From the NCBI GenBank assembly GCA_023251835.1, contig JAHEXZ010000018.1, positions 1,383 to 65,382 on the forward strand: a DNA stretch of 64,000 nucleotides. The letters run 5' to 3'. Below are positions 20,226 to 40,065 of this stretch, piece by piece (the stretch's first letter is position 1; every line of letters starts with the position of its first letter). The notes beneath the pieces are model-generated. The model ran no database searches, had not been told where the DNA came from, and saw nothing but the letters and a program-made list of their open reading frames with translations. The translations under genes and the position numbers were made by a program. The stretch comes from Bacteroidota bacterium (GTDB lineage: Bacteria; Bacteroidota; Bacteroidia; 2-12-FULL-35-15).

Positions 20226-21707
20226 TTAGTCCGTTCTTTTAAAAATTTTTGAAAGTTTAAAATTTTTGAGAGTCCGCCCATTCTGTTTTCGTGTTCTCCC
20301 ATTAGGGATACTTATTACTGTAGAATTATTTTTGAGAGCAACAAAGTATATAAAAATAAAAGAAGGGAATAGCTGTGCGAAAAGCCTGTGTAAGGATGTT
20401 GAAAGATAAAACACTAAATCTAATGGTGTAATAATTTCAACTATAAAAAAACCGACCAGCATTAGTATCAACCATGTGACGTTAGCTATAAAAGAATAGC
20501 TGTACTTTTTTATACTTATTCCTCCTTTAAACAAGATGCCTAATAAAAATAACCACCAGGGGTTAAAAGCCCATTGCCCGAAGATTACAAATTGCTCCTT
20601 ATACCACGACCAGATTATTTCATACCTGGAAAAATCTTTTATTTTTATTAATGTTTGCGGGCCCTGGCCTACCACAATCTGATTAGGAGGAGATATGGCA
20701 ATTTTTTGGTAGATAATCAAAGCTAAAATTGGTAACATACCAATTATTAAATATTTAACTTCTGTAAATAATTCTTTAGGATTTTTAAAAAATAACAGAG
20801 TTAGCTGTGAAGTCAACAAACATACAATAAATAGCAGTCCTTCATTTTTACTCCAGGCTGCGAGTCCCGCGGTGAGTCCTGACGCAATTAATAAACCAGG
20901 CTTTGTAGCAGAATCCTTGCGGGCAAGGGTTAATAGCACGATGCTCGCAAGAAAAAAATAGCCCACTGTATTGTCGGCATATTGAGAGTCGCCAAGGAGC
21001 ATAAAAAAAGGTGTACAAAGTAATATCAGGCCAGCAATCAGTCCTTGTATTTTATTTGTAAAGTAACTAACTGCTGCTGACAGAAGACCTATTGCACAAA
21101 ACGTAAATATAAATGAAAAAGCTATAGGTATCCATACTGTTTCATTTTTCAGGAGTATCCAGCATCTGGCAATGTAGCCTTTTTGTAGCAGAGGGTAATC
21201 CGTATGGAAATCTTCGGAAACCAATTGATGAAAGGAATCTGGCCAATTTACAGGGTCTCGGCCTATCATTTTTGCACCCAGGTTCCAATCCGCCCATGCA
21301 TCCCATAAGCCATGCGGTTCCTTTACGCTGTCAAAATAATAAACACCAATATCTAATAGCAATGAATAAAAATAAACGATTACCAGGAGAAGCAAGAGCG
21401 GATTTTTAGCAAGAGTATTTATAGAAAAAATTTTATTTTCTAGTGTGTTCTTTATGATGCTTTTAAATGGGTTACCGTATTTATAAAACAGAAAAAGTAT
21501 AAATACTATTTCAATAAGGATTACAAATAGTGTTGAAACGCCCAGCAAATTGAAAACAATAAAAATAATTGATGAAACTCCTATGCCGATGGGGATTGAG
21601 GAGTTAACCAGAAAACGAGGAGCATAATTGGCAAATTCTTTAAAAAGAATTTTGCATAACAAAATGCCCAGCAAAAAAGAAGTTAATATGGAAATCAAAA
21701 ATATCAT
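20226..21707 (-). CDS. multi-pass membrane protein family M3 (copy C)
   Basis: 493 aa; same conserved blocks; convergent with copy B (stops 11 nt apart). Confidence 0.7.
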   Translation of the reverse strand: MIFLISILTSFLLGILLCKILFKEFANYAPRFLVNSSIPIGIGVSSIIFIVFNLLGVSTLFVILIEIVFILFLFYKYGNPFKSIIKNTLENKIFSINTLAKNPLLLLLVIVYFYSLLLDIGVYYFDSVKEPHGLWDAWADWNLGAKMIGRDPVNWPDSFHQLVSEDFHTDYPLLQKGYIARCWILLKNETVWIPIAFSFIFTFCAIGLLSAAVSYFTNKIQGLIAGLILLCTPFFMLLGDSQYADNTVGYFFLASIVLLTLARKDSATKPGLLIASGLTAGLAAWSKNEGLLFIVCLLTSQLTLLFFKNPKELFTEVKYLIIGMLPILALIIYQKIAISPPNQIVVGQGPQTLIKIKDFSRYEIIWSWYKEQFVIFGQWAFNPWWLFLLGILFKGGISIKKYSYSFIANVTWLILMLVGFFIVEIITPLDLVFYLSTSLHRLFAQLFPSFIFIYFVALKNNSTVISIPNGRTRKQNGRTLKNFKLSKIFKRTD

Positions 21708-23537: not shown

Positions 23538-25874
23538 TTAATTCGGGTATTTTCTTTGAAAATCATTTGCGTTAAACCAATATCCATAATCTTTATCAAA
23601 TTTTGAGCGCCACAATGGAAATTCTGTATAAGGGAAATTGTCTGTTATTTCTTTGGCGTTTTCAACATTTTTCCGTAGTTGTTCTGAATCCATAATTTTT
23701 AAATCTAACAAATTAGCTGACGATTTAAAAAGCACCCCCCATTCGTTTAAATCATTCATAACCCTTGGAGTTTGGTCGGCTGCAGCAAAACGGTTCATAT
23801 CAATAGTAATATCATTAGGGCCGCCTATCATAAAGAATCCCGGATAGCTTGGCCCTGCATAAACAGTTGTATTAGGGAATACAACATAATATGATTTCAT
23901 AATCATTTTCACATCTGTCATCGATTCAGGTGGAATCCACATGCACATTATTCCATTTGTATTTAAGTGTTGTTTACATAATTTAAAAAAATCTGAAGTA
24001 TATAAATTTACAGTTCCCGCACTCCATAATGGTGGAGCGGGATCTATTACAATAATATCATATTTCTTTTTCTGCATTAACAAAAAATTCCTGCCATCAT
24101 CCGTATATGTATGAACACGCTTATTAGTGAGCACTTGTTCAGCATCATTGTGAAAATATTTGAAAGTTTCATACTCTTCTCCCACCAATTCAACAACATC
24201 ACAATTTATTTCTTCATGTGATATTGCAGACCTTAACGCAGTTCCCATTCCAAAGCAAATAATCAACATCTCATGCGGATCTTTGTGCATCAAAATCGGA
24301 AGATGAGACATTATTTTTGTTTCCGGAACCAAGGCGGTCATTCCTATTCCATTTATTAGAATCTGTTTATCCAAAGGATTAGTTTTAGAGCCATAAGCCG
24401 TTGCTGTTGCAACAACACCTTCTTTATGATAATAAATTTCATAATCAGGGTTTGTTGTAATTACTCTTTTAATAACAGTATAGAAAGGATCTGGTGCAGT
24501 GAAACTAAAAAAAGCTGTTAATAGAGTCAGCGACATCGCTGCAACTATTGCTGCATTTTTTACAGTTCGGCCATAACCAGTAAGTAAAACAATTAAGCCC
24601 ACACTGGAATTAATAATAGCAAGCAGAATAATTGTTCCCTGAGTTCCTAAAAACTGAATTAAAACATATCCGGAAATCAGCGATCCCAAAATACATCCCA
24701 AAGTATTTACTGAATAAAGTCTGCCAATTCCTCCTCCTATTGTTGAAGTTTTCTCGACATAAATATTTGTAACAATTGGAAATATAAATCCTAATGCAAA
24801 AGTTATGGGAAATACTACTAAAGCTGGTACTATTACTTTAGAGAAACCATAGGACACTTCATTATGCTGGGGTGTATACTGGCAGAAGATATAAATTCCA
24901 ATAATACTATATAAACCAATAAATGTTAACGCTACCCCCAGTATACCCATAGGATTTACAAGTCTTTCAAAATATTTTCCTGATAGAATGCTACCGAGCG
25001 CAGACCCCAACAGATAAATTCCGAGTACCATACTGAAGGCATATATAGATGTTCCCAATTGAAGCTGAAATAACCTGGTCCACACTATTTCAATTGCAAA
25101 TGAAGTGAAGCCTATCATAAAATATGCAAACAAAATAATCTTTCTCTCCTTAGGTATATATGTCGAAATTTTTTGCACTTTGATAGAGTTATTATCTTCC
25201 GTTTTTAATAATGATGAAATACTCAACTTCAAGTCGCTTCGTTCACCGATTACAAAAATAGCAATAGCGCCAACTATTAAATTGATACTAATACCAAGAA
25301 TAATTGTGTTCAGTTCACCAATAGATCCAATTGTAATAAAACCGCTTGCCAACACTCCCACTACAGCTCCAAGTGTATTTAATCCGTATAAGTTGCCCAT
25401 TCCTTCTGCAAAACTTGAATTGCGTTTTTTTGCCTCAGCACTTAATAAGGGTAACGTGCCTCCCATTAGGAAGGTTGGAACAACAAGTAAGATAAATACT
25501 GTAATAGATTGTAAAAATGTGTATAAAAGGGTACTATTCCCAGACAACCCATGAAAGAATTGATATACCGGTATCAGGCCATTAAACAGAAAGAATACAA
25601 CCAATGCCGTAATAGCAATTCCTATTTCCAAGAAAGCATACAACCGTATTAAATTTTTAATTTTATCGATACGCTTTCCTAAAAAGTAGCTGCCTAATGT
25701 CAGCCCTAACATAAATGCAGATAAAACTATAGAGGTTGCATAAACGGTGCTGCCAAGAATCCTTGAAAGCATCCTGAGCCATACGGTTTCATATATTAAA
25801 CCACTTATTCCTGAAAGAAAAAAAATAAAATATATAACACTATTAATACTCTGACCTTTTTTATTATTATTCAT
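23538..25874 (-). CDS. fused MFS-type membrane domain / spermidine-synthase-like (aminopropyltransferase fold) protein
   Basis: 778 aa; N-terminal 12+ TM (FFLSGISGLIYETVWLRML) and C-terminal class-I MTase-like SpeE-type domain (DIIVIDPAPPLWSAGTVNLYTSDFF); a widespread fusion architecture. Confidence 0.65.
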   Translation of the reverse strand: MNNNKKGQSINSVIYFIFFLSGISGLIYETVWLRMLSRILGSTVYATSIVLSAFMLGLTLGSYFLGKRIDKIKNLIRLYAFLEIGIAITALVVFFLFNGLIPVYQFFHGLSGNSTLLYTFLQSITVFILLVVPTFLMGGTLPLLSAEAKKRNSSFAEGMGNLYGLNTLGAVVGVLASGFITIGSIGELNTIILGISINLIVGAIAIFVIGERSDLKLSISSLLKTEDNNSIKVQKISTYIPKERKIILFAYFMIGFTSFAIEIVWTRLFQLQLGTSIYAFSMVLGIYLLGSALGSILSGKYFERLVNPMGILGVALTFIGLYSIIGIYIFCQYTPQHNEVSYGFSKVIVPALVVFPITFALGFIFPIVTNIYVEKTSTIGGGIGRLYSVNTLGCILGSLISGYVLIQFLGTQGTIILLAIINSSVGLIVLLTGYGRTVKNAAIVAAMSLTLLTAFFSFTAPDPFYTVIKRVITTNPDYEIYYHKEGVVATATAYGSKTNPLDKQILINGIGMTALVPETKIMSHLPILMHKDPHEMLIICFGMGTALRSAISHEEINCDVVELVGEEYETFKYFHNDAEQVLTNKRVHTYTDDGRNFLLMQKKKYDIIVIDPAPPLWSAGTVNLYTSDFFKLCKQHLNTNGIMCMWIPPESMTDVKMIMKSYYVVFPNTTVYAGPSYPGFFMIGGPNDITIDMNRFAAADQTPRVMNDLNEWGVLFKSSANLLDLKIMDSEQLRKNVENAKEITDNFPYTEFPLWRSKFDKDYGYWFNANDFQRKYPN

Positions 25875-26085: not shown

Positions 26086-27189
26086 TTATTTTCTTAGCTT
26101 TAATAATTGTTCACATATATACCCAATATCTTCATTGGTTAATGTAGAAAACGTAGGCACACTAATAACATTTTTACTTATATCTTCACATACCGGCAAT
26201 GAATGGGGTTCATAAATTTCCAAGATACTAGAAGCATAGAAACCCGGACGAGTTTCGATTCCTACACTTTTTAACTGTTCTATAAGTTTATCACGTCCTT
26301 GCGGAAATACTTTGCTGTCAAGTTTGAGGGCGATTGCCCATATTACCGCATCAACATCACTATTGACTTTTTGCATGGTAATACCATCTTTGTCTAAAAG
26401 GTACTTTTTATATTCTTCATTTACCCTGTAACGTTCAGTCAATATAGCATCTTTTTGTTCCAACTGAGCTACTCCGATAGCTGCCTGGAAATTAGTAAGC
26501 CGAAAGTTGTGTCCCGGTAATTCGTGCCAATAAAATTTTTTACCCCTGTCCATACCATGGCTGCGATACAGCATCATTCTCTTTTTTAGTTCATCAGAGC
26601 TTGTAACCACCAAACCGCCTTCGCCAGTTGTAATCATTTTTGTAGCTTGTAAACTAAAAGTACTCAGTTCTCCAATTGTTCCGCTTTCCCGCCCTTTATA
26701 TTTTGAAAAGAGTGATTCGGCACAATCTTCAATTACGGCAATTTTATGTACTTCTGCAATTTCCATAATTTCATCCATTGCACATACATTTCCATAGGTA
26801 TGAATAGGGATAATTGCTTTCGTCTTTGTTGAAATATATTTTGGAAGTTCCTCTGCAGATAAACACCATGTGTCCGGATCTATTTCAGCAAAGACTGGCC
26901 TTAACCCCATGTGTATGGCTATATTGGCCGCAGCCATAAAGGCAAATCCCGGCACTATTACTTCATCTCCAGGTTTTAGTCCTAATCCAAGATAAGCCAG
27001 ATGAATGGCTGTAGTTCCGTTAGACACAGCAAGAACATGTTTCTGTTCAAGTAGTTTACTAAAACCGGACTCCATCCTTTCGAGATATTCGCCTCCTGAA
27101 ATCCAAGTAGATTTTAGGGCATCGGTAACATATTCTATTTCATTCCCCCAGAAGTTGGGTTTTGTCCAGGGAATAAATTTATCTTTCAT
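26086..27189 (-). CDS. DegT/DnrJ/EryC1/StrS-family PLP-dependent sugar aminotransferase
   Basis: 367 aa; VSNGTTAIHLA, DEVIVPGFAF and the lysine region SFSLQATKMIT are typical. Confidence 0.8.
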   Translation of the reverse strand: MKDKFIPWTKPNFWGNEIEYVTDALKSTWISGGEYLERMESGFSKLLEQKHVLAVSNGTTAIHLAYLGLGLKPGDEVIVPGFAFMAAANIAIHMGLRPVFAEIDPDTWCLSAEELPKYISTKTKAIIPIHTYGNVCAMDEIMEIAEVHKIAVIEDCAESLFSKYKGRESGTIGELSTFSLQATKMITTGEGGLVVTSSDELKKRMMLYRSHGMDRGKKFYWHELPGHNFRLTNFQAAIGVAQLEQKDAILTERYRVNEEYKKYLLDKDGITMQKVNSDVDAVIWAIALKLDSKVFPQGRDKLIEQLKSVGIETRPGFYASSILEIYEPHSLPVCEDISKNVISVPTFSTLTNEDIGYICEQLLKLRK

Positions 27190-27806
27190 CCGTTTAATTT
27201 GTTAATGTACATGTTCCATTTTAAATTATACATATTAAAGCTGGTACTATATTTAAAACTGTTTTTTACATAAAAGCTATTTGCTTTTTGCTTCACATCA
27301 TGTACCGTGACTTTGTATAGACAAATCCCTCTTTTTAGAAATTCTTTATTTAAGACTTCAACTATTTGTGTTCCCATACCTTTGGCTCTATAGTTGCCGT
27401 CTGTAATAATAGCAACCAACTCTGCTTTTATACCAGTATTCTGCTTTTTAACATAAAACAAAGTTTCAAAAAGTTTAGGAACTATTTGTATTGGATTAAG
27501 AAAAACCCTTGGCAGAATAATTTTAAAATATTTGAGAAATTTTCTGGTAATGATCTTAAATATCTGTTCACTGTCCACAGAAGCAAGAGCAAATCCACAA
27601 ACGGCATTATCTTTTAGAGCAAAAATAAAGAAACCCAGCTTTTCTCTTAAAATATCTGTAAATAACTCCTGTATAAAACGTCTCCCGAATAATGATAAAA
27701 AACCATTGTCCGAAAGGTGTTCCATATATAACCGGGCAGATGAATTTATTAATTCGGAATTAGAACTATCTGTAACAATAAAATCAATGTTACTTTCACA
27801 AACCAT
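27186..27806 (-). CDS. GNAT-family N-acetyltransferase (putative sugar N-acetyltransferase)
   Basis: 206 aa; acetyl-CoA motif A-like ELVAIITDGNYRAKGMGTQIVEVL; 4-nt overlap with aminotransferase. Confidence 0.5.
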   Translation of the reverse strand: MVCESNIDFIVTDSSNSELINSSARLYMEHLSDNGFLSLFGRRFIQELFTDILREKLGFFIFALKDNAVCGFALASVDSEQIFKIITRKFLKYFKIILPRVFLNPIQIVPKLFETLFYVKKQNTGIKAELVAIITDGNYRAKGMGTQIVEVLNKEFLKRGICLYKVTVHDVKQKANSFYVKNSFKYSTSFNMYNLKWNMYINKLNG

Positions 27807-27835: not shown

Positions 27836-28795
27836 TTAATTATATATTTTGTTTGTTGTCTCCCTGCTTGTTTCACTTTCTAATGCATCTTTCACAAAAT
27901 CATTTAATGGCATTTTAAGCCATTCCGAGGCTGTTTTCCAGCTATATTCTTCGCTTTGCTCATCTAATATCACACGCTGTTCTGCATCGTCAACAGTGAC
28001 TTCAAACAGAGTGACAATGTTGTGATATTTTTTGTTTGCGGGTTTTTCAAAAATGAACTCAAAGCATGCTATCTGTTTGCAGTTTTCTCCTGTTAATAAG
28101 CACTCTTCATATAATTTTCTTTTTGCTGCATCTTCTCTTCTTTCTCCATATAGAACACGCCCACCCGGAACCCACCATTCATCCTTTTGGGGTTCATTTT
28201 TTCTTTTTATAAGAAGTATTTCTCCCTTTTTATTTTTTACAAGCAGGTCAATACATGGAATAGGCAAGGATTCTAAAATAACATTATATAACTCTTTCCT
28301 GATAAAACCTTTTTCAAATGTCAAATTTTCTGCAAAAAAAAAATCAGGGTTATTAGCCTTGAAATTACCATTAAATAACTGTTTCAAAAAATCGTGTCCT
28401 ACCAATCTAATCCATTCATCAGGATGTTTCCAGGAAAAATCGCTACTCTGAGAATCCGTTCTAACGCTATCATTATCAACTTGTACCCTATAAACTGTTG
28501 TTATTGTATGCTGATAATAATTCTCCAGTTCATTCTTAATCATGTAATCGTATATACCTTGCACTGAAATCGTATCAGATACAATACCGCACTCTTCAAG
28601 AAGCAATCGTTTTACTGCATTTAGTCTACTTTCAGCAAATCTTACACGCCCACCAGGAATCCACCACTGGCCCTTTGCCGGCTCATTTGTTCTTTTAACT
28701 AATAATACCTTATTGTTTTTATTACAAACAAGCAACTCAACCGCACTTAGGGGAAAGGATCGTTTTATTTCAGTATACAGCTCCTGCGGAATCAT
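27836..28795 (-). CDS. tandem double NUDIX protein, GDP-mannose mannosyl hydrolase (Gmm/WcaH)-like x2
   Basis: 319 aa with two repeats: LLVKRTNEPAKGQWWIPGGRVRFAESRLNAVKRLLLEECG and LLIKRKNEPQKDEWWVPGGRVLYGERREDAAKRKLYEECL; each matches the Gmm-type modified Nudix box (KRTN.PA.G.W..PGGRV). Confidence 0.7.
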   Translation of the reverse strand: MIPQELYTEIKRSFPLSAVELLVCNKNNKVLLVKRTNEPAKGQWWIPGGRVRFAESRLNAVKRLLLEECGIVSDTISVQGIYDYMIKNELENYYQHTITTVYRVQVDNDSVRTDSQSSDFSWKHPDEWIRLVGHDFLKQLFNGNFKANNPDFFFAENLTFEKGFIRKELYNVILESLPIPCIDLLVKNKKGEILLIKRKNEPQKDEWWVPGGRVLYGERREDAAKRKLYEECLLTGENCKQIACFEFIFEKPANKKYHNIVTLFEVTVDDAEQRVILDEQSEEYSWKTASEWLKMPLNDFVKDALESETSRETTNKIYN

Positions 28796-28992
28796 TTTTG
28801 TTCATTCAAAATATGAAATCCAAATTCAGAATGTTTCCTCTGCATCTCAAAAAAACAGAGACCATCGTCATTAAGTTCTCCGATGAAGTTTGTAATTTTA
28901 TTTTGTACTTTTAATTCTGACAAAATGCAGAAAAAAGTGTTTTTGTGCCCTTGCATAATTACGATAGGAATTTTAAGGTATAACTTCCACAT
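28792..28992 (-). CDS. small ORF (66 aa) filling the gap between C-methyltransferase and NUDIX genes
   Basis: Only evidence is the tight fit: 4-nt overlap with NUDIX start and 20-nt overlap with upstream stop in an otherwise translationally coupled operon; no recognisable domain. Confidence 0.25.
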   Translation of the reverse strand: MWKLYLKIPIVIMQGHKNTFFCILSELKVQNKITNFIGELNDDGLCFFEMQRKHSEFGFHILNEQK

Positions 28993-30223
28993 CAGGGAGC
29001 GGTCTGATAAATTTAGTTCCGTTATTGACCAGGTTCTGCTCCCGTTTCATAAACCCATCCATAAAACTATAAGGCAGAGCCAGTAAATAATCCGGCTTTA
29101 CTGCCCGCATTTCATCTTCATTTTTGATCGGAATATCAGCACCAATAATATATTTCCCGAATTTAAACGGGTTGGAATCTGCAGCAGCTTCAATCAGATT
29201 ACTACCAATACCACAATATTGGAGAATTGTATTGCCTTTTGTTGAAGCTCCGTATATCCAAATCTTTTTTCCTTCTGCTTTTATTTTTTCACATAATTCG
29301 ATTAAGTCAGTCCTTGTTTTTTCAACACGTTTCATAAAATCGAAGTACGTGTTCGGATTATAAATTCCCATTTCCATTTCATCTTCTAAAACTTGCTGGT
29401 ACCGTTGCGTTTGAGGATACTTAGCGCATCCTTTTTTCTTGATAAATAACCTGAAGCTGCCGCCATACACATCATTCAATGTTACATCAAAAATTTCGAG
29501 ACCTGCTTTTTCCATAATCCATCGCATATGGTCAGTAGCATAATAGCCGACATGCTCGTGCACAATGTTATCGTACATATTTGTTTTAACCATTGCCGGC
29601 AGATAAGCCATCTGTATTACCCAGATACCATCATCAGCCATACATGCAGCTACGTCTTTTGAGAACTGAATCGGGTCATATAAATGATAAAACATGGCGA
29701 TACTAAATACCAATTTTGCTTTTTTTCCGGTAGCAGACTCAAATGTTTTTTGGTCAAAATAGGTATTGACGATTTTAAATTTATCCGATTTAAAAACAGG
29801 CTTAACATTTTGTGCAGCATCAATACACAATAAATCGCAATTTCTATTCTGAAGGTAAGACAGGAGTGTTCCGTCATTACCACCAATATCCAGCACTAAA
29901 TCATCTTTTGTAACATCCTTATATGCTAAAGCACTGTCTAACACATCCTTTAAAATTTTAGGCATGGAGGAGTTTGTAGAGCTGGTAAATGGGTACTCCT
30001 GATACATTTGTGTCATATCAAAAGAGTGCCCAAGCTGTAAAACACCACAGCTATTCTCATTTTTTTCACACAAAACCAAATCCAGTGCCTGCTTTGATAA
30101 ATTGCTCCTGTAATTTAAGTTTTGTGGAAATATGGAAGATAAATACTGGTTGCCCAAATCTATACAAGGAATTAAAGATGGATTACCGCAAAACCGGCAA
30201 GAGTGAATTTTTACACTATTCAT
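28973..30223 (-). CDS. NDP-hexose C-methyltransferase (TylC3/NovU-like; Zn-ribbon + class I MTase + C-terminal C-MT domain)
   Basis: 416 aa; N-terminal CRFCGN...C zinc-binding pair, MTase motif LVLDIGGNDGTLLSYL, long C-terminal domain typical of sugar C3-methyltransferases. Confidence 0.7.
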   Translation of the reverse strand: MNSVKIHSCRFCGNPSLIPCIDLGNQYLSSIFPQNLNYRSNLSKQALDLVLCEKNENSCGVLQLGHSFDMTQMYQEYPFTSSTNSSMPKILKDVLDSALAYKDVTKDDLVLDIGGNDGTLLSYLQNRNCDLLCIDAAQNVKPVFKSDKFKIVNTYFDQKTFESATGKKAKLVFSIAMFYHLYDPIQFSKDVAACMADDGIWVIQMAYLPAMVKTNMYDNIVHEHVGYYATDHMRWIMEKAGLEIFDVTLNDVYGGSFRLFIKKKGCAKYPQTQRYQQVLEDEMEMGIYNPNTYFDFMKRVEKTRTDLIELCEKIKAEGKKIWIYGASTKGNTILQYCGIGSNLIEAAADSNPFKFGKYIIGADIPIKNEDEMRAVKPDYLLALPYSFMDGFMKREQNLVNNGTKFIRPLPDVEVIP

Positions 30224-30934
30224 TTATTGAAGCAGATTAAGTTTAGTTTTCATTGAATCAAGGTATTTAAATACCTCTCTTGAATCGGGAAAAGATATAT
30301 CCGGGTTTTCAATTTCCTGCACATCAAATGGTCCGTCAAATATAACATCCGCATTCAAATGTTCTGCAATATCTTTCAAACGAAGTGCGTTTGAAGCACC
30401 TACTTCAATTACACCTGTTTTATCAAAATTAGAGGTAATATATCCGGCAACAAAATCAACACTGCAAAAGCTATAGCGACTTTCGGCATCAAGAAATATT
30501 TTATTCCCCATAAGCATATCTATTAGCACACCTTTTTTTAAGCCTTCTCCAAACATGCTGCTTAAACGCACAACCAAATGGTTGCCAAAATTGCATATAC
30601 TTTCTGCTGCAAGTTTATGACGGCCATAAACAGTATCAAGCTGGCAACGCGCTGAAACTGTACTTATCTGAATAAATTTGTCAAAAGTACAACCGTAAAA
30701 AATGTCAGCTGTTTTTTGTACCGTTTCTACGAAATCTTTTTCCGGATTATTTTTCGCCCAAAATCTTGCAGCAGGAGCTGCTGCATTTATAACAATGTTA
30801 TAGTTTTTTCCGATGTGAACAGAGTTGTTATCCCTGGTAACGGGTATGACACAGAAATTTTCTTTTGATGCTAAAGAAGAGCATACACTTTTACCTACAA
30901 AACCATTAGCACCAAATACGGCAACAGTGATCAT
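30224..30934 (-). CDS. short SDR-type NAD(P)-dependent sugar epimerase/ketoreductase
   Basis: 236 aa; Rossmann VFGANGFVGKSV; catalytic YGRHK (YxxxK). Confidence 0.6.
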   Translation of the reverse strand: MITVAVFGANGFVGKSVCSSLASKENFCVIPVTRDNNSVHIGKNYNIVINAAAPAARFWAKNNPEKDFVETVQKTADIFYGCTFDKFIQISTVSARCQLDTVYGRHKLAAESICNFGNHLVVRLSSMFGEGLKKGVLIDMLMGNKIFLDAESRYSFCSVDFVAGYITSNFDKTGVIEVGASNALRLKDIAEHLNADVIFDGPFDVQEIENPDISFPDSREVFKYLDSMKTKLNLLQ

Positions 30935-31335
30935 TTTACAAATATATCTTCTCTTATTATTGGTGTTTTACAATCATCCCAAGGCTTTGTAAGCATTGCT
31001 ACAGCTGTCAGAGGAGTAATTGCATAAACGGTATGACGCACTCCGATAGGAGTTCTGAGACAAGATCCCTTACTGACGTGGATTATCCTTTGTTTCATTT
31101 CAGGAGCATCAAGTGTAACAGCAATTCCGGAACCTTCCACAATTAAAAAATATTCGATAAACTCCGGATGGTAATGATTCCCCCGGGTTGTGCCAGGAGT
31201 AAAATAAAGCAGGTTAAACTCTTTAATAACATCCTGAGGCACCCAGGTAAATATCCCGCCACGGCCATCTTTAACAGTTTCTACATTGCAAGTAGGAAAG
31301 AATACTTCCATTCTTTCATCTGACAATTTACTCAT
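30931..31335 (-). CDS. cupin-fold sugar isomerase/epimerase (FdtA/WxcM-like)
   Basis: 134 aa; RGNHYH and GVRH histidine motifs of small cupins that sit in deoxy-aminosugar clusters; size fits 3,4-ketoisomerases. Confidence 0.5.
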   Translation of the reverse strand: MSKLSDERMEVFFPTCNVETVKDGRGGIFTWVPQDVIKEFNLLYFTPGTTRGNHYHPEFIEYFLIVEGSGIAVTLDAPEMKQRIIHVSKGSCLRTPIGVRHTVYAITPLTAVAMLTKPWDDCKTPIIREDIFVK

Positions 31336-32163: not shown

Positions 32164-33678
32164 TTATTTCAATTTAAAGACTTCCATAATCTTTTCACCA
32201 TTAACATCAATTTTATGTACAGGTGTGCCGATATTATAATCTTTAGGGTGCCATCTGAAATTGGTTATAAAGTAATTAGCAGATTTAATGTCAAAAGTAT
32301 ATTCTAACCGACCTCTTTCTTTAACAGGCATTATACTGAAATTTAACATGGGGGTTAAATCCATATCATTATGATCTGAAGTAATAAATATTTTCGGGGA
32401 CGAATCGTTCGTCAAAATGTATTCTAATCCTTGTTTGTAGGATAATCCCCAATAATCAAGATCGTATTTCTCCCGGATATTGCTTCCCGCCAACAGATTG
32501 AAATATACATTCTGATGCGGGTGGTTCCTAACCATAAAAAATACAGTGAAAATAATGGAAAGGAAAGTTAAAGTGAGGGTAGAATTAATTATAATAACCT
32601 TTTTAATTGTTTGAAGCAATTGAATAAAACCATACACAGCAATAAGTACGAAAAAAGGATACACAAAATAAACATGTCTCCATGAATCATATACTGTGGA
32701 ATGTAGTACAATAACTGCTATAATTGGAGAGGCAAATACGAATAAAAATAGCTGGACAGGGATAGTGCTTCTAAAATTTTTCAATGTGTTTTTCACTATG
32801 TAGGCTATTCCCATAACAAAAATAAATATATAATATAGGGGAGTGGTTATACAAATCCATACGGGCAGATAATGCCATGGAACATTTTGTATCGGAACAA
32901 AATTGCCCATATATAGTGTAGTGCCATTACCGGGGTATTTGCTCATCTGCTTAAGTGCTTCCATAAAATGATACCAAGGGGCTAACCAAAATACAGGCCA
33001 GAAAACAATAACAAACACCACCAGATAAATCAAGAACATAATAAGAGGAATTGTTCTTTTTTTTTTTTGAAAAAAATAAAAATAAATGGTTGCGATTGGT
33101 ATCAATATACCCATAACTCTTATATCTATTGTAAATCCACAGAATATTGAGTGAATAAGAGCGGATAAAACAGTTTGCCTCTCAACAAATAAAAACATGG
33201 TGTAGGTAGAAATAATGCAGAAACAAAGCATCATCAAATCCTTCGAATTATAAAAACCTTCAGCAAATATTCTGGGAGAAACAACCAGCATAACCACACA
33301 GAGTAAAGCTGCAAAATGATATTTAAAAATTTTCAACGCGAGAAAATAAAAAAACAGGGAAGCGATAAAGAATGTTAAAAAAGTAAGTAAATGACGTAAT
33401 AAATAAACGCTCCTTTCATCTGTTACATTGAACATCTTTTCTGCCCCATACAATAAAAGTTCAAACGCTGGTCCATGGTATTTCCCGTCATTTGCAAGCA
33501 AAGCCCGAGAGTTATGGTTCTTTATAAAATTATAGTTAGCCTCTCCAATAACATATCTCTGCACTTCTTCATCTGTCGATATTCCATAATCCGAATAAAT
33601 AAAACAGCCCGTCAGAAAAAAAGTTATAAAAAACACATAAGCAATTTTTTTAAATATGCTGTTGTTTGTATAAATCAT
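32164..33678 (-). CDS. GT-C (ArnT/PMT-like, GT39/83-type) membrane glycosyltransferase family GTC-1 (copy 1)
   Basis: 504 aa; first-loop motif SDYGISTDEEVQRY; 11-12 TM then C-terminal soluble domain; paralog of 38560..40065 (LLRHLLTFLTFFIA / MLRHGICFLTFFIA, YNSKDLMMLCFCIIS / YNSKDLSMLCFCIIS). Confidence 0.7.
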   Translation of the reverse strand: MIYTNNSIFKKIAYVFFITFFLTGCFIYSDYGISTDEEVQRYVIGEANYNFIKNHNSRALLANDGKYHGPAFELLLYGAEKMFNVTDERSVYLLRHLLTFLTFFIASLFFYFLALKIFKYHFAALLCVVMLVVSPRIFAEGFYNSKDLMMLCFCIISTYTMFLFVERQTVLSALIHSIFCGFTIDIRVMGILIPIATIYFYFFQKKKRTIPLIMFLIYLVVFVIVFWPVFWLAPWYHFMEALKQMSKYPGNGTTLYMGNFVPIQNVPWHYLPVWICITTPLYYIFIFVMGIAYIVKNTLKNFRSTIPVQLFLFVFASPIIAVIVLHSTVYDSWRHVYFVYPFFVLIAVYGFIQLLQTIKKVIIINSTLTLTFLSIIFTVFFMVRNHPHQNVYFNLLAGSNIREKYDLDYWGLSYKQGLEYILTNDSSPKIFITSDHNDMDLTPMLNFSIMPVKERGRLEYTFDIKSANYFITNFRWHPKDYNIGTPVHKIDVNGEKIMEVFKLK

Positions 33679-33685
33679 GAAACCT

Positions 33686-34786
33686 CTAATAATTATTTAA
33701 AACCTCTATGACTTTATTCACTTCCTCATCGGTAAGTTCTGCATACATAGGCAAACTCAAACAATGTTCTGCAAGGTATTCCGCATTGGGACAATCTCCT
33801 TTTTTGTAACCCAAATTCTGATATGCTTTTTGCAAATGGCAAGGCACAGGGTAATGCAAAGCCGGATATATGTTATTCTGATTTAAATAACTCATTAGCT
33901 CCTGCCGTTTTTCAGCGGTGATTACAAACAAGTGATAAATAGAATCTGCCCACTCAGGCTGTGCCTGCATTTTAATTTTAGGATTGACTATTTCATTTTG
34001 ATATTGTCTGGCAATATCTTTCCTGCGCTGGTTCCAGCCTTCAAGATATTTCAGCTTAATTTTAAGTGAGGCGCCTTCCAAACCACCCATACGGTAATTA
34101 TAACCAATTTCATCATGAAAATACCTTACCTGAGAGCCGTGATTCCTCAGGCTTTGCAGGTGTTTATAATATTCTTCGTTATTGGTTGTAACTCCTCCCG
34201 CCTCTCCACACGCCCCCAGGTTTTTCCCCGGATAAAAGCTAAAGCAGGCCATTTCGCCAAAACCTCCAACCATACCCCCTTTATATCTTGTTCCCTGGGC
34301 TTGTGCAGCATCTTCTATTAAATACAAACCATTCTTTTTAGCTATGGCTACAACTCCGTCAATATCAAAGGGCTGTCCGTAAAGATGAACTCCTATTATT
34401 GCTTTTGTTCTGGAAGTAATTTCCCGCTCTATTTTAGCAATATCTATCTGCCAGGTATCAGGAGTACAATCCACAAAAACAGGGGTTGCACGGGTGTATG
34501 AAACACCCCATGCCGTGGCAATAAATGTATTAGCAGGCAGTATCACCTCGTCTCCTGCTCCAATTTCTAAAGCCAGCATCGCTATATGAAGGGCGCTTGT
34601 GCCATTGTTTAAGCCTACCGCATATTTTGTTCCGCAAAACGCAGCAAAATCCTTCTCAAACATTTCCACAAAAGGCCCTCCTGAAAAAGCTGTATTTTCA
34701 TACACTTTTTCAAATGCTTCAAAAATCTCTTTCTTGACTTGTTGATGCTGCCCTTTTAAATCCAGACAGTTAATTTTTTCAGACAT
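33686..34786 (-). CDS. DegT-family aminotransferase, WbpE/WlbC-like (UDP-3-keto sugar aminotransferase)
   Basis: 366 aa; LNNGTSALHIAMLAL, DEVILPANTF, FYPGKNLGACGEAG lysine region. Confidence 0.8.
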   Translation of the reverse strand: MSEKINCLDLKGQHQQVKKEIFEAFEKVYENTAFSGGPFVEMFEKDFAAFCGTKYAVGLNNGTSALHIAMLALEIGAGDEVILPANTFIATAWGVSYTRATPVFVDCTPDTWQIDIAKIEREITSRTKAIIGVHLYGQPFDIDGVVAIAKKNGLYLIEDAAQAQGTRYKGGMVGGFGEMACFSFYPGKNLGACGEAGGVTTNNEEYYKHLQSLRNHGSQVRYFHDEIGYNYRMGGLEGASLKIKLKYLEGWNQRRKDIARQYQNEIVNPKIKMQAQPEWADSIYHLFVITAEKRQELMSYLNQNNIYPALHYPVPCHLQKAYQNLGYKKGDCPNAEYLAEHCLSLPMYAELTDEEVNKVIEVLNNY

Positions 34787-34794
34787 TTAATTTT

Positions 34795-35280
34795 TTATTT
34801 TTTTATCGCCCTCGCAGGGTTACCGGCAACAATTGAATTTGCAGGCACATCCTTTGTTACTACTGCCCCGGCACCTACCAATGAATTTTCACCAATAGTA
34901 ATCCCGCATAGTATGGTAGCATTGCTGCCAATAGATGATCCTTTTTTCACATACGTTTCTATCAGTTTCCAGTCTGCATCTGTTTGAACAGAGCCATCCG
35001 GATTAGTGGCTCTCGGGAACAAATCATTTGTGAACATTACACCGTGTCCAATAAAACAGTTATCCTCTATATGTACACCTTCACAAATAAACGTATGGCT
35101 GGAAATCTTACAATTTTTTCCAATTGATGCACCTTTTTGTATCTCAACGAAAGCCCCCACCTTTGAGTTATCGTCAATAGAACAACCATAAGCATTCACA
35201 AAGTTGAAAATTTTTACATTGTTTCCAATCTTTACATTGTTTAATGACTGTTTATCATTTGTTACAGTAATTACTTCCAT
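34795..35280 (-). CDS. left-handed beta-helix (hexapeptide) N-acetyltransferase, WbpD/WlbB-like
   Basis: 161 aa; hexapeptide repeats [31 protein letters not shown] ... [25 protein letters not shown]. Confidence 0.75.
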
Positions 35281-35288
35281 GATCAGAG

Positions 35289-36290
35289 CTACAATAGAAT
35301 TTCTTTTCCTTTTTGTTTAATTGATTGTTGTGCACCTTCCAGAATTTTAACAACCTCGAGTCCCAGGTTAAAATCGGATACTGGCTTTGTGTTTTTGGTA
35401 ACAGCGCAGATAAAGTCTGAAGCCATATACGACAGTGCCTCATTATTCTGTATTTTAGGAATATATATATCTCCCACACGATAATCAACTAGTATACGAT
35501 GTTTCTCTTCATCTGTTTTCACCATATAACCAGTATCGTATACTTTTAGTTTTTCCGTAGGTTCCATATCATTAAATACGATCATCTTTTTATCACCACC
35601 AACTAAAGTCATACGTATTTTCACCGGAGAAGCCCAAGAACAGTTAAAATGCGCAATCATACCGGATTCGAAGTTAACTGTCATGTATGCTATATTTTCT
35701 ATCCCATTATTGGTATGCGATATTCCTGTAGCATTTATACTGTATGGTTTTTCAGGAATCAAATGGGCGAGTATGGAAATATCGTGCGGGGCTAAATCCC
35801 ACAGCACATTTACATCCTGCTGAAAAAGGCCAAGATTGATACGTGTAGAATCAAAGTAGTTTACTTTTCCTATATCTCCATTACTTACAAGTTGCTTCAT
35901 CTTTTGAATAGCACCTGTATAAAGGAAAGTATGGTCTACCATTAATACTTTATTTTTAGCATTTGCTATTTCAATTAATTTTTCAGCTTCAGCACCCGAA
36001 GCGGTCATAGGTTTTTCAATTAACACATGCTTATTACTGACAAGTGCTTTATAGGCAAGCTCGTAATGTGAAAATACAGGTGTAGCAATAACAACGGCAC
36101 TAATAGTGGCATCATTAAAAATATCATCTGCATTGGTTGTGGTTTTTACAAATGAATAATTTTTTTTAATACTATTCAACCGTTCTGGTCTATAATCGGC
36201 CACAACTTCCACTTTACAGTTATCAAAAGCCGAAAAATTTCTCAGAAGATTAGGTCCCCAGTAACCAAAGCCAACTATGCCAATTTTCAT
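35289..36290 (-). CDS. Gfo/Idh/MocA-family NAD-dependent oxidoreductase, WbpB-like (UDP-sugar 3-dehydrogenase)
   Basis: 333 aa; [14 protein letters not shown] Rossmann start, family-typical EKP motif (LIEKPMT). Confidence 0.75.
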
Positions 36291-36553: not shown

Positions 36554-37273
36554 ATGCAAAGCTGGTCGATTATTATCTTTTGTTATAATGAAAAGGGGAA
36601 TGTGGCTCATGTGATACGTGATTGTGTATCCGTTATACGGGCTATTGGAAGCAAGGAAAGGGAAATCATAATTGTTGATGACGGAAGTACCGATGGTTCA
36701 GTTAATGAGATAGAGAATGAAATCATAAAATTTCCCGGGGAAGCTTTTAAGCTGATAAAACATTCTACGAACCTTGGTATAGGTATGGCACTGCGCAGTG
36801 GGTATCAAAATGCGGTATATGAGAATGTGTGTGCAGTTCCTGCCGATAGGCAATTTAATGTTACGGAGTTGCTCCCTTTTTCTGAAATTGAGCAGGAAAC
36901 TTTTGTTTGTTTCTATAGAAAAGAAAACCAAAGTTATTCCCTGCTGCGTAATATCCTTTCTTTATTTAACAAACAATTCAATAAGTTGCTGCTTGGAATA
37001 TCCTTTAAGGATATAAACTGGGTAAAGATATATAAATCTGCTTCTTTGAAAAAACTTGATTTAAAACTGGAAAGTTCACTTATTGAAACTGAGATATGTG
37101 CCAAACTTGTTGCCATTGGAAACAGATTTATGGAGATGCCGTCTATCTATTTACCCCGGAATAATGGAGTTAGTAAAGGTGCTTCCTGGAAAATCGTAAG
37201 AAAAGCGATAACAGAAATGCTTAAAGTATACTTTGCGGTCAGAGTATTTAAATCAAAAATTAAAAAACACTAA
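36554..37273 (+). CDS. second GT2 polyprenyl-phosphate sugar synthase (ArnC/DPM1-like)
   Basis: 239 aa; IIIFCYNEKGN, IIVDDGSTDGS, and an Asp in AVPADRQFN in place of the canonical DxD; divergent from the long minus operon. Confidence 0.7.
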   Translation: MQSWSIIIFCYNEKGNVAHVIRDCVSVIRAIGSKEREIIIVDDGSTDGSVNEIENEIIKFPGEAFKLIKHSTNLGIGMALRSGYQNAVYENVCAVPADRQFNVTELLPFSEIEQETFVCFYRKENQSYSLLRNILSLFNKQFNKLLLGISFKDINWVKIYKSASLKKLDLKLESSLIETEICAKLVAIGNRFMEMPSIYLPRNNGVSKGASWKIVRKAITEMLKVYFAVRVFKSKIKKH

Positions 37274-38559: not shown

Positions 38560-40065
38560 TTATCGTAGTTTAAATGCTTCCATGATTTTTTCTCCCCTTA
38601 CTTGTATCTGAAATACCGAATTTGGAATATCGTAATCCTGGGGATGGTTCCTGAAATTTGTAATAAAATAGTTGCCCGAATTAATGTCTTTATCTTTTAC
38701 CAGACGCATCCTGTCTTCTGCCGGTATACAATAAAAATTCAGATAACCAGGCAGATTTGCAGCCGTTATGTGTATCTGGTCAGATTTATCATGCGCTAAT
38801 ATATATTCCAGTGCCTGTTTATAAGATAGTCCCCAATATTCCATTTCAAATCTTTGCCGGAGATTATTTCCGGCAAGAACGTTAAAATAGACATTCTGAA
38901 ATGGATGTATGCCAATCATTACTATTATGGTATATGCCATTGATAATACTGTTATTACAACAATAAGTTTTTTAATCATCATGTTTTTTATAATCTGAAA
39001 AACCTGACTAAAGCCATATACAGCAATAATTAGAAAAAAAGGATAAATAAAAAACACATGCCGCCATCCATCATAAAGAGAAGAATTTAAAACTATTATG
39101 GCAACAACGGGAGTAAAAAGCATAAATAAAACAGAATGGAGCATAAAGGTGCTTTTAAAACTTGCAAAAGAATTTTTTATAACAAAAAACAAACCTGTTA
39201 TAAATAGCACAGAGTATACCACAGGCGTTGTTATGCCAATCCATGCCGGTATATAATGCCAGGGCAAATCTGCTGCAGGGACACTTTGTCCAAAATATAA
39301 ATTTGTAGAGCCTTTCACCGGATAGTTGCTCATTTGTTTAAAGGCTTCAATAAAATTTTGTACCGGGTCGAGCCAAAGTACTGGCCAGAAAGCCATGATA
39401 AAAAACAGCGAGTAAGCAATAAACACCAACAACGGAATTATTTTTCTCTCTTTTTGTAAAAAGAAAAAATATACAGTTGCGATCGGCAATAAAATAGCCA
39501 TTATTCTTATATCAACTGCAAAACCACAAAGCAAAGCATGGATAAAAGCACTGAAGATGGTTTGTTTTTCAATAAATAAATACATAGTATATGCTGAAAT
39601 AATACAAAAGCACAGCATAGATAAGTCTTTTGAATTATAAAAGCTGTCAGCAAATATTCGCGGTGATAAAACAAGCATCAGGCAGCCTAATAAGGAAAGA
39701 GCATGCCTCTTAAAAATTTTTAAACATAAAAAATAAAAACACAGAACGGCTATAAAGAAGGTTAAAAAGCATATTCCATGACGCAGCATAAAAATATGCC
39801 GGGCATCTGTTAAATCAAAAAGTTTTTCAGCAGCAAATAAAACAATTTCATAAGAGGGGCCATAATATCTGTGAAAATTTGAAAGTAACTCGGCTGAGTT
39901 TCCTGTTCTTATATAATTATAATTTAAGGCTCCTATTTGTGTCCATTGCACCCCTTCATCCCAATAGATTCCATAATCTGTAAAAATAAAACAAGCAACA
40001 GTAAACAAACAAATGAAAAAAATGAGAGCAGCGCGCTTAAAAAAAAGTTCTTCTTTGTTAAACAT
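38560..40065 (-). CDS. GT-C (ArnT/PMT-like) membrane glycosyltransferase family GTC-1 (copy 2)
   Basis: 501 aa; TDYGIYWDEGVQW first-loop motif; paralog of 32164..33678 including C-terminal domain (EKIMEAFKLR / EKIMEVFKLK). Confidence 0.7.
   Translation of the reverse strand: MFNKEELFFKRAALIFFICLFTVACFIFTDYGIYWDEGVQWTQIGALNYNYIRTGNSAELLSNFHRYYGPSYEIVLFAAEKLFDLTDARHIFMLRHGICFLTFFIAVLCFYFLCLKIFKRHALSLLGCLMLVLSPRIFADSFYNSKDLSMLCFCIISAYTMYLFIEKQTIFSAFIHALLCGFAVDIRIMAILLPIATVYFFFLQKERKIIPLLVFIAYSLFFIMAFWPVLWLDPVQNFIEAFKQMSNYPVKGSTNLYFGQSVPAADLPWHYIPAWIGITTPVVYSVLFITGLFFVIKNSFASFKSTFMLHSVLFMLFTPVVAIIVLNSSLYDGWRHVFFIYPFFLIIAVYGFSQVFQIIKNMMIKKLIVVITVLSMAYTIIVMIGIHPFQNVYFNVLAGNNLRQRFEMEYWGLSYKQALEYILAHDKSDQIHITAANLPGYLNFYCIPAEDRMRLVKDKDINSGNYFITNFRNHPQDYDIPNSVFQIQVRGEKIMEAFKLR

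Follow-up and report, generated by a model that had tools for sequence, protein, structure and literature searches.

The stretch of 64,000 nucleotides from the Bacteroidota contig JAHEXZ010000018.1 that was analysed, hereafter the window, carries at positions 27836-28795 on the minus strand a complete open reading frame (ORF), from ATG to TAA, for a protein of 319 amino acid residues (aa) with two Nudix domains. Pfam PF00293 (NUDIX) matches the protein in two stretches (E=7.6e-29). Its N half (aa 1-160) and its C half (aa 161-319) are 40% identical over 139 residues (E=1e-37), and the halves are therefore true paralogs, beyond a chance repeat. The N half contains the motif KRTNEPAKGQWWIPGGR at aa 34-50 and the Nudix box GRVRFAESRLNAVKRLLLEECGI at aa 49-71; the C half contains KRKNEPQKDEWWVPGGR at aa 197-213 and the box GRVLYGERREDAAKRKLYEECLL at aa 212-234. 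The original prediction, made from the sequence of the window alone, had proposed a fusion of two domains resembling GDP-mannose mannosyl hydrolase (Gmm, also WcaH or NudD) in one polypeptide. This proposal holds: in addition to the two PF00293 stretches and the identity between the halves, Gmm is the top match of each half, neither domain is a generic Nudix domain, and the variant box motifs that had been quoted occur letter for letter in the ORF. As predicted too, the Glu that follows the Arg of the canonical R-E-x-x-E-E box is absent from both halves, as in Gmm; Leu takes its place in the N half (R-L) and Lys in the C half (R-K), so that neither box is complete. At the second Glu of the box both halves read E-E, where Gmm reads A-E.

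The closest Nudix fold is that of E. coli Gmm (1RYA, 2GT2, 2GT4; 2I8T for the O128 enzyme), with 28-31% identity per half. Searched alone, each half has the GDP-mannose mannosyl hydrolase model NF011963 as its top NCBIfam match, at 66.7 bits for the N half and 59.1 bits for the C half; the whole protein scores 120.9 bits, the sum of two domains, and neither half nor the whole protein reaches the curated family cutoff of 146 bits. The top sequence matches in the PDB were likewise Gmm entries (2I8T, 1RYA, 2GT4). An AlphaFold (AF2) model of the full-length protein, calculated with the family alignment, was compact (predicted local distance difference test, pLDDT, 88.5; predicted template modelling score, pTM, 0.86) and consisted of two alpha/beta Nudix domains with a low-confidence linker between them; a pTM of this size implies that the domains are arranged in a defined way. 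With this model Foldseek placed the Gmm entries 2I8T, 1RYA, 2GT2 and 2GT4 first, at template modelling scores of 0.77-0.85 relative to the target. The ranking did not change with a separate single-domain AF2 model (pLDDT 90.8), Gmm structures again coming first. Gmm is a homodimer, whereas the window protein holds two domains in one chain; its compact predicted structure fits a covalent pseudo-dimer.

Both halves were aligned to E. coli Gmm, and the residue numbers of 1RYA are used below. In Gmm we take His124 to be the general base, Tyr103 to contact the leaving group, and Arg37, Arg52 and Arg65 together with Glu70 and Gln123 to be the diphosphate and Mg ligands, roles that are said to go back to studies published between 2002 and 2007. 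Both halves keep Arg37, Asn39, Arg52, Glu57, Arg65, Glu70, His102, Asp121 and Gln123, and at the Asp22 equivalent the C half retains Asp where the N half has Glu. In the place of the catalytic base His124 the N half has Ser117 and the C half Ser281; in that of Tyr103 they have Thr97 and Asn259, respectively. The expectation that each half would carry the active-site residues of Gmm was thus confirmed for the Arg and Glu residues and failed at these two positions. The mechanism of Gmm has been described as dissociative, with a His general base and several leaving-group contacts (PMC7729866), and a contact through Arg36/37 has been reported (PMC10037897). PDB entry 2GT4 is, by its title, the structure of the Y103F mutant of Gmm. 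Because His124 and Tyr103 are replaced in both halves and the scores of 59-67 bits per half lie far under the curated cutoff, the protein is no orthodox Gmm; it resembles Gmm in fold and nucleotide site and is devoid of two defining catalytic features.

The two-domain architecture was found in about 18 proteins of 287-322 aa and 46-72% identity in a search of 5.8 billion proteins. Owing to this recurrence, the tandem ORF is real and no sequencing or assembly artefact. All tandem proteins with a name or a genome assignment come from Bacteroidota metagenome-assembled genomes (MAGs), and of 185,579 genomes, one representing each species, only about three, all of them Bacteroidota MAGs, contained the tandem form. 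When 1.84 billion cluster representatives were searched exhaustively with HMMER, the only tandem Gmm-like forms were the P0001 cluster and P0026; the other double-Nudix proteins found were few, unrelated and equipped with canonical boxes (e.g. P0083, P0084, P0145 and P0167). A survey of genomes for the same fusion, as had been suggested, therefore shows it to be recurrent and rare.

Across the tandem family the mean pairwise identity is 0.55 for the N domain, 0.56 for the C domain and 0.18 for the linker. The equivalents of R37, R52, E57, R65, E70, H102, D121 and Q123 are invariant in both halves (16-17 tandem members), 28 positions are conserved and identical in both halves, every ligand residue among them, and the position of His124 is Ser or Thr in all members. 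Five positions are fixed and differ between the halves, namely N17/P180, A18/C181, E20/D183, L64/K227 and Y84/F247. The first three sit on the strand that bears the Gmm Asp22 equivalent, E20/D183 being that equivalent itself, and L64/K227 correspond to Leu66 of Gmm. In addition, the box position equivalent to residue 69 of Gmm is restricted family-wide to E or Q in the C half and varies (E/T/N/D) in the N half. Since five positions are fixed yet different between the halves, the two sites are probably non-equivalent, as far as the alignment tells. The divergence of the two halves that had been predicted is hence found throughout the family, while the suggested division into one catalytic and one regulatory site is not supported: both halves are equally conserved and neither is more degenerate. 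The C half has stayed like the single-domain relatives at their typical residues (D22, K66, E/Q69), and the N half is the derived one.

Neighbour-joining trees of the half-domains with about 140 single-domain relatives were bootstrapped; the N halves were monophyletic in 93% of the bootstraps and an exclusive clade of N and C halves appeared in 4%. The trees are compatible with an internal duplication as well as with the joining of two paralogs. A second, divergent tandem Gmm-like lineage is represented by the metagenomic proteins P0019 and P0026 (305-306 aa). Their N half is intact and has the D-x-Q-S loop; in their C half the box Glu (RRIA-x-GLG) and the D-x-Q-S loop are lost. By these residues, the pair would be a natural case of one live and one decayed pocket, an asymmetric decay that is possible in this fold and absent from the window protein. 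Double Nudix proteins are known already (Lin et al. 2009, as cited in PMC5389931, where the dataset contains seven examples). Double MutT/Nudix proteins resemble the window protein in having two PF00293 domains per chain through duplication or fusion, but they have canonical R-E-x-x-E-E boxes, are not Gmm-like, and none has been reported in a sugar-tailoring operon. The double-Nudix architecture has arisen independently several times.

By its residues, the tandem protein belongs, as a rare fused form, to a large clade of single-domain proteins that carry the loop D-x-Q-S in place of D121-E-Q123-H124. In the exhaustive search of cluster representatives, proteins of about 150 aa matched one half or the other with E values down to 1e-45, and a profile search returned at least 1,568 clade proteins at E<=1e-15. 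They are about 140-150 aa long and occur in many bacterial and archaeal phyla and in one phage. Among the best 118 clade matches, D22, R37, R52, E57, R65, K66, E70 and H102 are invariant, position 124 is Ser in 115, D121 is conserved in 115 and E69 is present in 109. The clade signature, K-R-x-N-E-P...WW-x-P-GGR, R-K-x-x-E-E and D-x-Q-S, is shared by the window protein; its C half is close to a typical clade member and its N half has diverged at the five fixed positions. The JGI label of these proteins is commonly WcaH, and automatic annotation makes them WcaH or generic NUDIX hydrolases. On this pattern of residues we regard the His-less D-x-Q-S proteins as a coherent, uncharacterised clade. 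Its single-domain members are presumably homodimers.

Loci from the genome scan were sorted by the residue at position 124 into 26 His-less and 43 His-bearing (D-x-H-H) loci, and their neighbourhoods differ. A sugar C-methyltransferase (CMeT) lies within 3 kb in 9 of the 26 His-less loci against none of the 43 His-bearing ones (Fisher p=5.5e-5), and a short-chain dehydrogenase/reductase (SDR) similar to Gmd in 12 of 26 against 2 of 43 (p=5.9e-5). Where CMeT and Nudix genes adjoin, the stop codon of the former either overlaps the start codon of the latter or comes close to touching it. Clade members appear to belong to operons for GDP-6-deoxyhexose tailoring, in which they mostly follow a sugar 3-C-methyltransferase gene directly, with Gmd-like SDRs and aminotransferases resembling GDP-perosamine synthase close by. 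All three clade members that were sampled from long contigs have the order CMeT, Nudix, Gmd-like SDR and glycosyltransferase of family 2 (GT2); two of these loci (L088, L089) have a small ORF and a DegT gene upstream as well, and the small ORF of L088 weakly matches a WbuC-family cupin model. The operon logic of the clade (CMeT, Gmd-like SDR, DegT, cupin, GT2) is another likeness to the window locus. The SDRs beside the single-domain relatives score 296-407 bits with the Gmd equivalog and 50-105 bits with models of dTDP- and CDP-glucose dehydratases. The Gmd-like SDR encoded immediately after the single-domain Nudix gene has Asn for the dehydratase Glu (FQP-x-[TS]-S-N-M-FG), and NEADQDHV stands in it for HLGAQSHV; true Gmd paralogs, whether in these loci or in others, keep S/T-S-E. 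This Glu-less SDR is, from its motifs, probably a distinct subfamily that acts as a reductase instead of a 4,6-dehydratase.

Nucleotidyltransferase-Nudix fusions were found in P0021, P0093 and P0202. The last of these is encoded on a phage contig (L090:8001-11336; terminase, SU10-type adaptor) as a fusion of a cytidylyltransferase-like domain with a D-x-Q-S Nudix domain; downstream of it follow genes for a sugar CMeT, a small cupin and a DegT protein of the LegC family, and no SDR was detected in this phage module. The His-bearing D-x-H-H proteins (L014-L078, e.g. L047, L058, L061 and L075) form a sister clade in Chloroflexota, Verrucomicrobiota and cyanobacteria. They lie away from sugar-tailoring genes and often stand beside a 6-phosphogluconate dehydrogenase or a GH94 phosphorylase.

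In the window, the Nudix gene occupies the middle of a sugar-tailoring operon, as the original prediction had stated, with minus-strand genes for CMeT, SDR, cupin and GT2 upstream and for a GNAT acyltransferase and a DegT aminotransferase downstream (Table 1). The aminotransferase scores 272 bits as a GDP-perosamine synthase (Per) and at most 175 bits in other classes. A tblastn search found no Gmd encoded in the window. The gene order recurs in distant loci with the tandem protein, where the GNAT gene is sometimes swapped for a methyltransferase. Between the CMeT and Nudix genes lies a gap of 177 nucleotides (nt; 28796-28972), covered only by a dubious ORF of 66 aa (28792-28992). The equivalent of this gap in related loci is either about 25-30 nt long (L003, L005) or holds genes for a Rieske protein and a protein of 193 aa (L001); the gap in the window could be a remnant of these genes.

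Table 1 Features of the tandem Nudix protein, of its operon and of related loci. Coordinates are positions in the window, except where a locus is named
Feature	Coordinates	Strand	Remarks
DegT aminotransferase	26086..27189	-	Closest to GDP-perosamine synthase (3BN1/3DR4, E ~1e-79); best NCBIfam match LegC-family
GNAT N-acyltransferase, directly downstream of Nudix	27186..27806	-	Methyltransferase or other small protein here in related cassettes
Tandem Gmm-like Nudix protein	27836..28795	-	Complete ORF, 319 aa + TAA stop
C-terminal Nudix domain, aa 164-306	27878..28306	-	Keeps single-domain-clade residues D183, K227, E230-E231
C-half loop D278-E-Q280-S281	27953..27964	-	Equals Gmm D121-E-Q123-H124; Ser for catalytic His
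C-half variant Nudix box	28094..28162	-	G-x5-E218-x7-R226-K-L-Y-E-E231-C-L-L
Linker, aa 143-163 (up to ~166)	28307..28369	-	Mean pairwise identity 0.18, pLDDT 58-70
N-terminal Nudix domain, aa 1-142	28370..28795	-	More derived half: E20, L64, variable residue at Gmm-69 position
N-half loop D114-S-Q116-S117	28445..28456	-	Equals Gmm D121-E-Q123-H124; Ser for catalytic His
N-half variant Nudix box	28583..28651	-	G-x5-E55-x7-R63-L-L-L-E-E68-C-G-I; Glu after Arg absent
Sugar 3-C-methyltransferase, upstream partner	28973..30223	-	Methyltransf_13/23/14; best PDB matches MtmC 4RV9, KijD1 5T64, TcaB9 3NDI
Short SDR, 236 aa, putative ketoreductase	30224..30934	-	GxxGxxG and YxxxK motifs, weak RmlD_sub_bind match
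Small cupin, 134 aa, putative keto-sugar epimerase	30931..31335	-	Weakly similar to CapF cupin domain
GT2, 233 aa	31354..32055	-	Resembles polyprenyl-phosphate sugar synthases ArnC, PpgS, AglJ
Second DegT	33686-34786	-	Second amino-sugar module
Hexapeptide acyltransferase	34795-35280	-	Second amino-sugar module
GFO/IDH/MocA oxidoreductase	35289-36290	-	Second amino-sugar module
Gmd-like SDR with Glu to Asn	L013:9422-10399, L055:2218-3234, L044:1435-2439, L063:7512-8525, L087:8480-9484, L088:8455-9450, L089:8451-9452		

Further sugar genes surround the cassette. A second amino-sugar module (33686-36290, minus strand) lies upstream in the same strand run and presumably follows the logic of WbpB/WbpD/WbpE for 3-acetamido sugars. 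Three paralogous PMT_2 membrane glycosyltransferases of the ArnT/GT-C-like type (20226-21707, 32164-33678 and 38560-40065, minus strand) and a second GT2 (36554-37273, plus strand) are interspersed with the sugar genes, which suggests that the region encodes several envelope modifications dependent on polyprenyl-phosphate sugars. Directly downstream of the cassette DegT gene, a protein of 778 aa with fused MFS and spermidine-synthase-like parts (NCBIfam NF037959) is encoded at 23538-25874 on the minus strand; in related cassettes its slot goes to different proteins, likewise large (586-816 aa), and some of these have a Polysacc_synt domain.

The dependence between the methyltransferase and the Nudix gene was examined in a control scan of metagenomes with a CMeT profile that was blind to Nudix. 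It yielded 80 loci, 67 of them with at least 600 nt downstream of the CMeT gene, and only about five of the 80 were positive with the Nudix hidden Markov model. A Nudix gene of the D-x-Q-S type directly adjoined CMeT in one locus (L128) and lay about 1.9 kb off in two (L111, L133); weaker Nudix matches were found 1.55 kb from CMeT in L132 and L143. The nearest relatives of the window CMeT, in L092 (71% identity) and L094-L096 (61-63%), have the same cupin and short SDR upstream, yet these loci contain neither a Nudix gene nor a Per-like DegT. Likewise, L103 carries Gmd, CMeT, a DegT 52% identical to that of the window and GT2, yet no Nudix gene. As only about five of 80 CMeT loci carry Nudix and close relatives do without it, the Nudix protein is an accessory component: it depends on the type of operon, and the operon does not depend on it. 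In the Bacteroidota cassette it travels with the genes for amination and N-modification. The overlapping genes and a CMeT-Nudix fusion (P0051, L091:128-1811) had prompted the idea of an obligatory partner of CMeT, which the control scan rules out. The P0051 fusion itself lies on a contig of 2 kb with a frameshifted CMeT and is likely an artefact at the overlapping stop/start junction.

The accessory position inside a GDP-sugar polysaccharide operon is a further likeness to gmm/wcaH, a stable accessory gene of enterobacterial clusters for GDP-mannose-derived polysaccharides. The neighbours differ, being gmd-fcl-manC-manB for Gmm and a 3-C-methyltransferase with a Per-like aminotransferase for the window protein. 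In the literature, no CMeT-Nudix module or GDP-linked module for C-methyl amino sugars was found described beyond an in-silico proposal for virenose in Coxiella, which has GDP-linked methylation of the TylCIII type and no Nudix component.

Going beyond architecture, residue pattern, genomic context and accessory status, we infer GDP specificity, hydrolysis and a physiological role, and tentatively read the protein as a pseudo-dimeric GDP-sugar hydrolase for pool control or housecleaning, with a catalysis other than that of Gmm and two slightly different sites. We give this reading, the most parsimonious one, a little less than an even chance. In it, two paralogous Gmm-like domains would form the pseudo-dimer, with some 20 residues between them as a flexible linker, and the conserved Arg/Glu/Gln-Mg site of each half would bind a GDP-sugar. 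GDP-sugars that are in excess, incorrect or damaged would then be hydrolysed with a base other than His; candidates are Asp114/Asp278 acting through Ser and the second Glu of the box, which the clade has restored. Because the clade regained this Glu, attack at C1 and at phosphorus both come into consideration, and cleavage may take place at phosphorus rather than at C1. The two sites might prefer different sugars, as is suggested by positions close to the sugar-contacting strand at which the halves are fixed for different residues. The operon would most likely start from GDP-4-keto-6-deoxymannose made elsewhere and lead to a GDP-linked, N-acylated 4-amino-4,6-dideoxy-3-C-methyl-hexose, which the GT2 may attach to polyprenyl phosphate so that the GT-C (PMT_2) transferases encoded nearby can use it.

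Several points weigh against hydrolysis. His124 and Tyr103 are lost in both halves and throughout the D-x-Q-S clade; in E. coli Gmm, loss of His124 reportedly lowers kcat more than 1000-fold, and H124L is said to be inactive. The near-invariant Ser at position 124 suggests a new function beyond simple loss. The translational coupling to CMeT and the nucleotidyltransferase fusions would fit a dedicated biosynthetic step too, and the GDP specificity is read from neighbouring genes and homology only.

The foremost alternative is a non-hydrolytic tailoring enzyme. Here the His-less fold would hold GDP-4-keto-6-deoxyhexose for chemistry on the sugar ring, e.g. a 2,3-dehydration as in EvaA and TylX3, or an epimerisation or isomerisation, and the methyltransferase, aminotransferase and reductase would go on to work on the product. 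Extended to the whole D-x-Q-S clade, this would make it a new family for tailoring GDP-keto-sugars, for instance a compact GDP-4-keto-6-deoxyhexose 2,3-dehydratase paralleling EvaA, and in the tandem protein the two pockets, having diverged, might handle intermediates that follow one another in the pathway. We consider such a role unlikely for the window protein, and no better placed for the clade, though in both cases worth weighing. The NDP-hexose 2,3-dehydratases EvaA and TylX3 belong to the Nudix superfamily and have duplicated domains with two sugar-nucleotide pockets per subunit, one of them active (PMC8987622). PF03559, the family of EvaA (4J7G), TylX3 and OleV, is one of the Pfam families of the Nudix clan. 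The genes of these enzymes also lie beside those for a 3-C-methyltransferase, a DegT protein, an epimerase and a ketoreductase, and the window cassette holds the five enzyme classes of EvaA-E: a tandem Nudix protein, DegT, 3-C-methyltransferase, cupin and RmlD-like SDR. To our knowledge, all structurally characterised CMeT relatives act on 2-deoxy substrates, and a PF03559 gene was absent from all cassettes examined, both of which speak for the dehydratase. So do the ketoreductase-type SDR together with the aminotransferase, which imply two carbonyls to process, the reductase-like Gmd relative without its dehydratase Glu beside the single-domain Nudix proteins, and the fact that the hydrolytic base is gone and the residues for nucleotide binding are retained, a pattern that fits binding without hydrolysis.

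Pfam scans, a profile search of the PDB and Foldseek searches with two models rule out membership in the EvaA family itself: all 17 tandem family members examined lack a PF03559 signal, even at E up to 10, and EvaA (4J7G) was neither among the top 60 PDB profile matches nor among the top 50 Foldseek matches of the full-length and single-domain models. The EvaA-type enzymes are also longer (about 470 aa), dTDP-linked and found in actinomycetes. In EvaA only one pocket, that with the catalytic Glu pair E139/E190, is active, whereas both halves of the window protein are fully conserved. The aminotransferase of the cassette is Per-like and thus of the C-4 type, unlike the C-3 type EvaB, very similar operons manage without a Nudix gene, and we know of no GDP-linked pathway to 2-deoxy sugars. 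A protein that works like EvaA, outside its family, would accordingly remain a minority hypothesis drawn from analogy.

Less probable still is a non-catalytic GDP-sugar binder, i.e. a sensor, a carrier or scaffold between the methyltransferase and the later enzymes, or a protector of a labile keto-sugar, with the tandem form fixing the dimer. It would explain why the catalytic base is lost and the binding residues are kept, and why the Nudix gene is translationally coupled to CMeT, and non-enzymatic proteins of the Nudix fold have been described (PMC5389931). The conservation of the metal-binding E57, E69 (109/118, restored relative to Gmm) and E70 and of the D-x-Q-S loop argues for catalysis, however, and most CMeT loci lack a Nudix gene, so that there is no need for a scaffold. 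Least probable is a bona fide Gmm that hydrolyses GDP-mannose to GDP and mannose by C1-O cleavage, as a fused pseudo-dimer with a catalytic/regulatory split or sites for two NDP-sugars: the top sequence and structure matches to Gmm, the leaving-group-activating Arg residues and Mg ligands kept in both halves, the fixed differences between the halves and the dimeric state of Gmm favour it, but both halves lack His124 and Tyr103, the score is far under the family cutoff, neither half is degenerate as the split would have it, and the clade is tied to operons for C-methyl sugars and not to GDP-mannose supply, with no Gmd in the window.

The main by-product of the analysis is the recognition of a large clade of Gmm-like proteins that have no His at position 124 and are associated with sugar C-methyltransferases in bacteria, archaea and a phage. 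Its annotation as WcaH or generic NUDIX is probably wrong in detail, affecting at least 1,500 proteins without the catalytic His of Gmm, the residue having been scored in the best 118. The tandem form offers a handle for mutating one site at a time in a single chain, by which one may learn whether both pockets are active and whether their specificities differ. Should the protein be a hydrolase, as we tentatively prefer, it would exemplify a housecleaning of nucleotide sugars that is specific to one pathway; otherwise, the sugar chemistry of the Nudix fold would extend beyond Gmm and EvaA, and a true dehydratase would give bacteria, archaea and phages a GDP-linked way to make 2-deoxy amino sugars branched at C-3, the first of its kind. 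For the Bacteroidota, the cassette predicts a GDP-linked 3-C-methyl-4-amino-6-deoxyhexose that passes via polyprenyl phosphate to GT-C transferases, which would, if true, be an unusual modification of the envelope.

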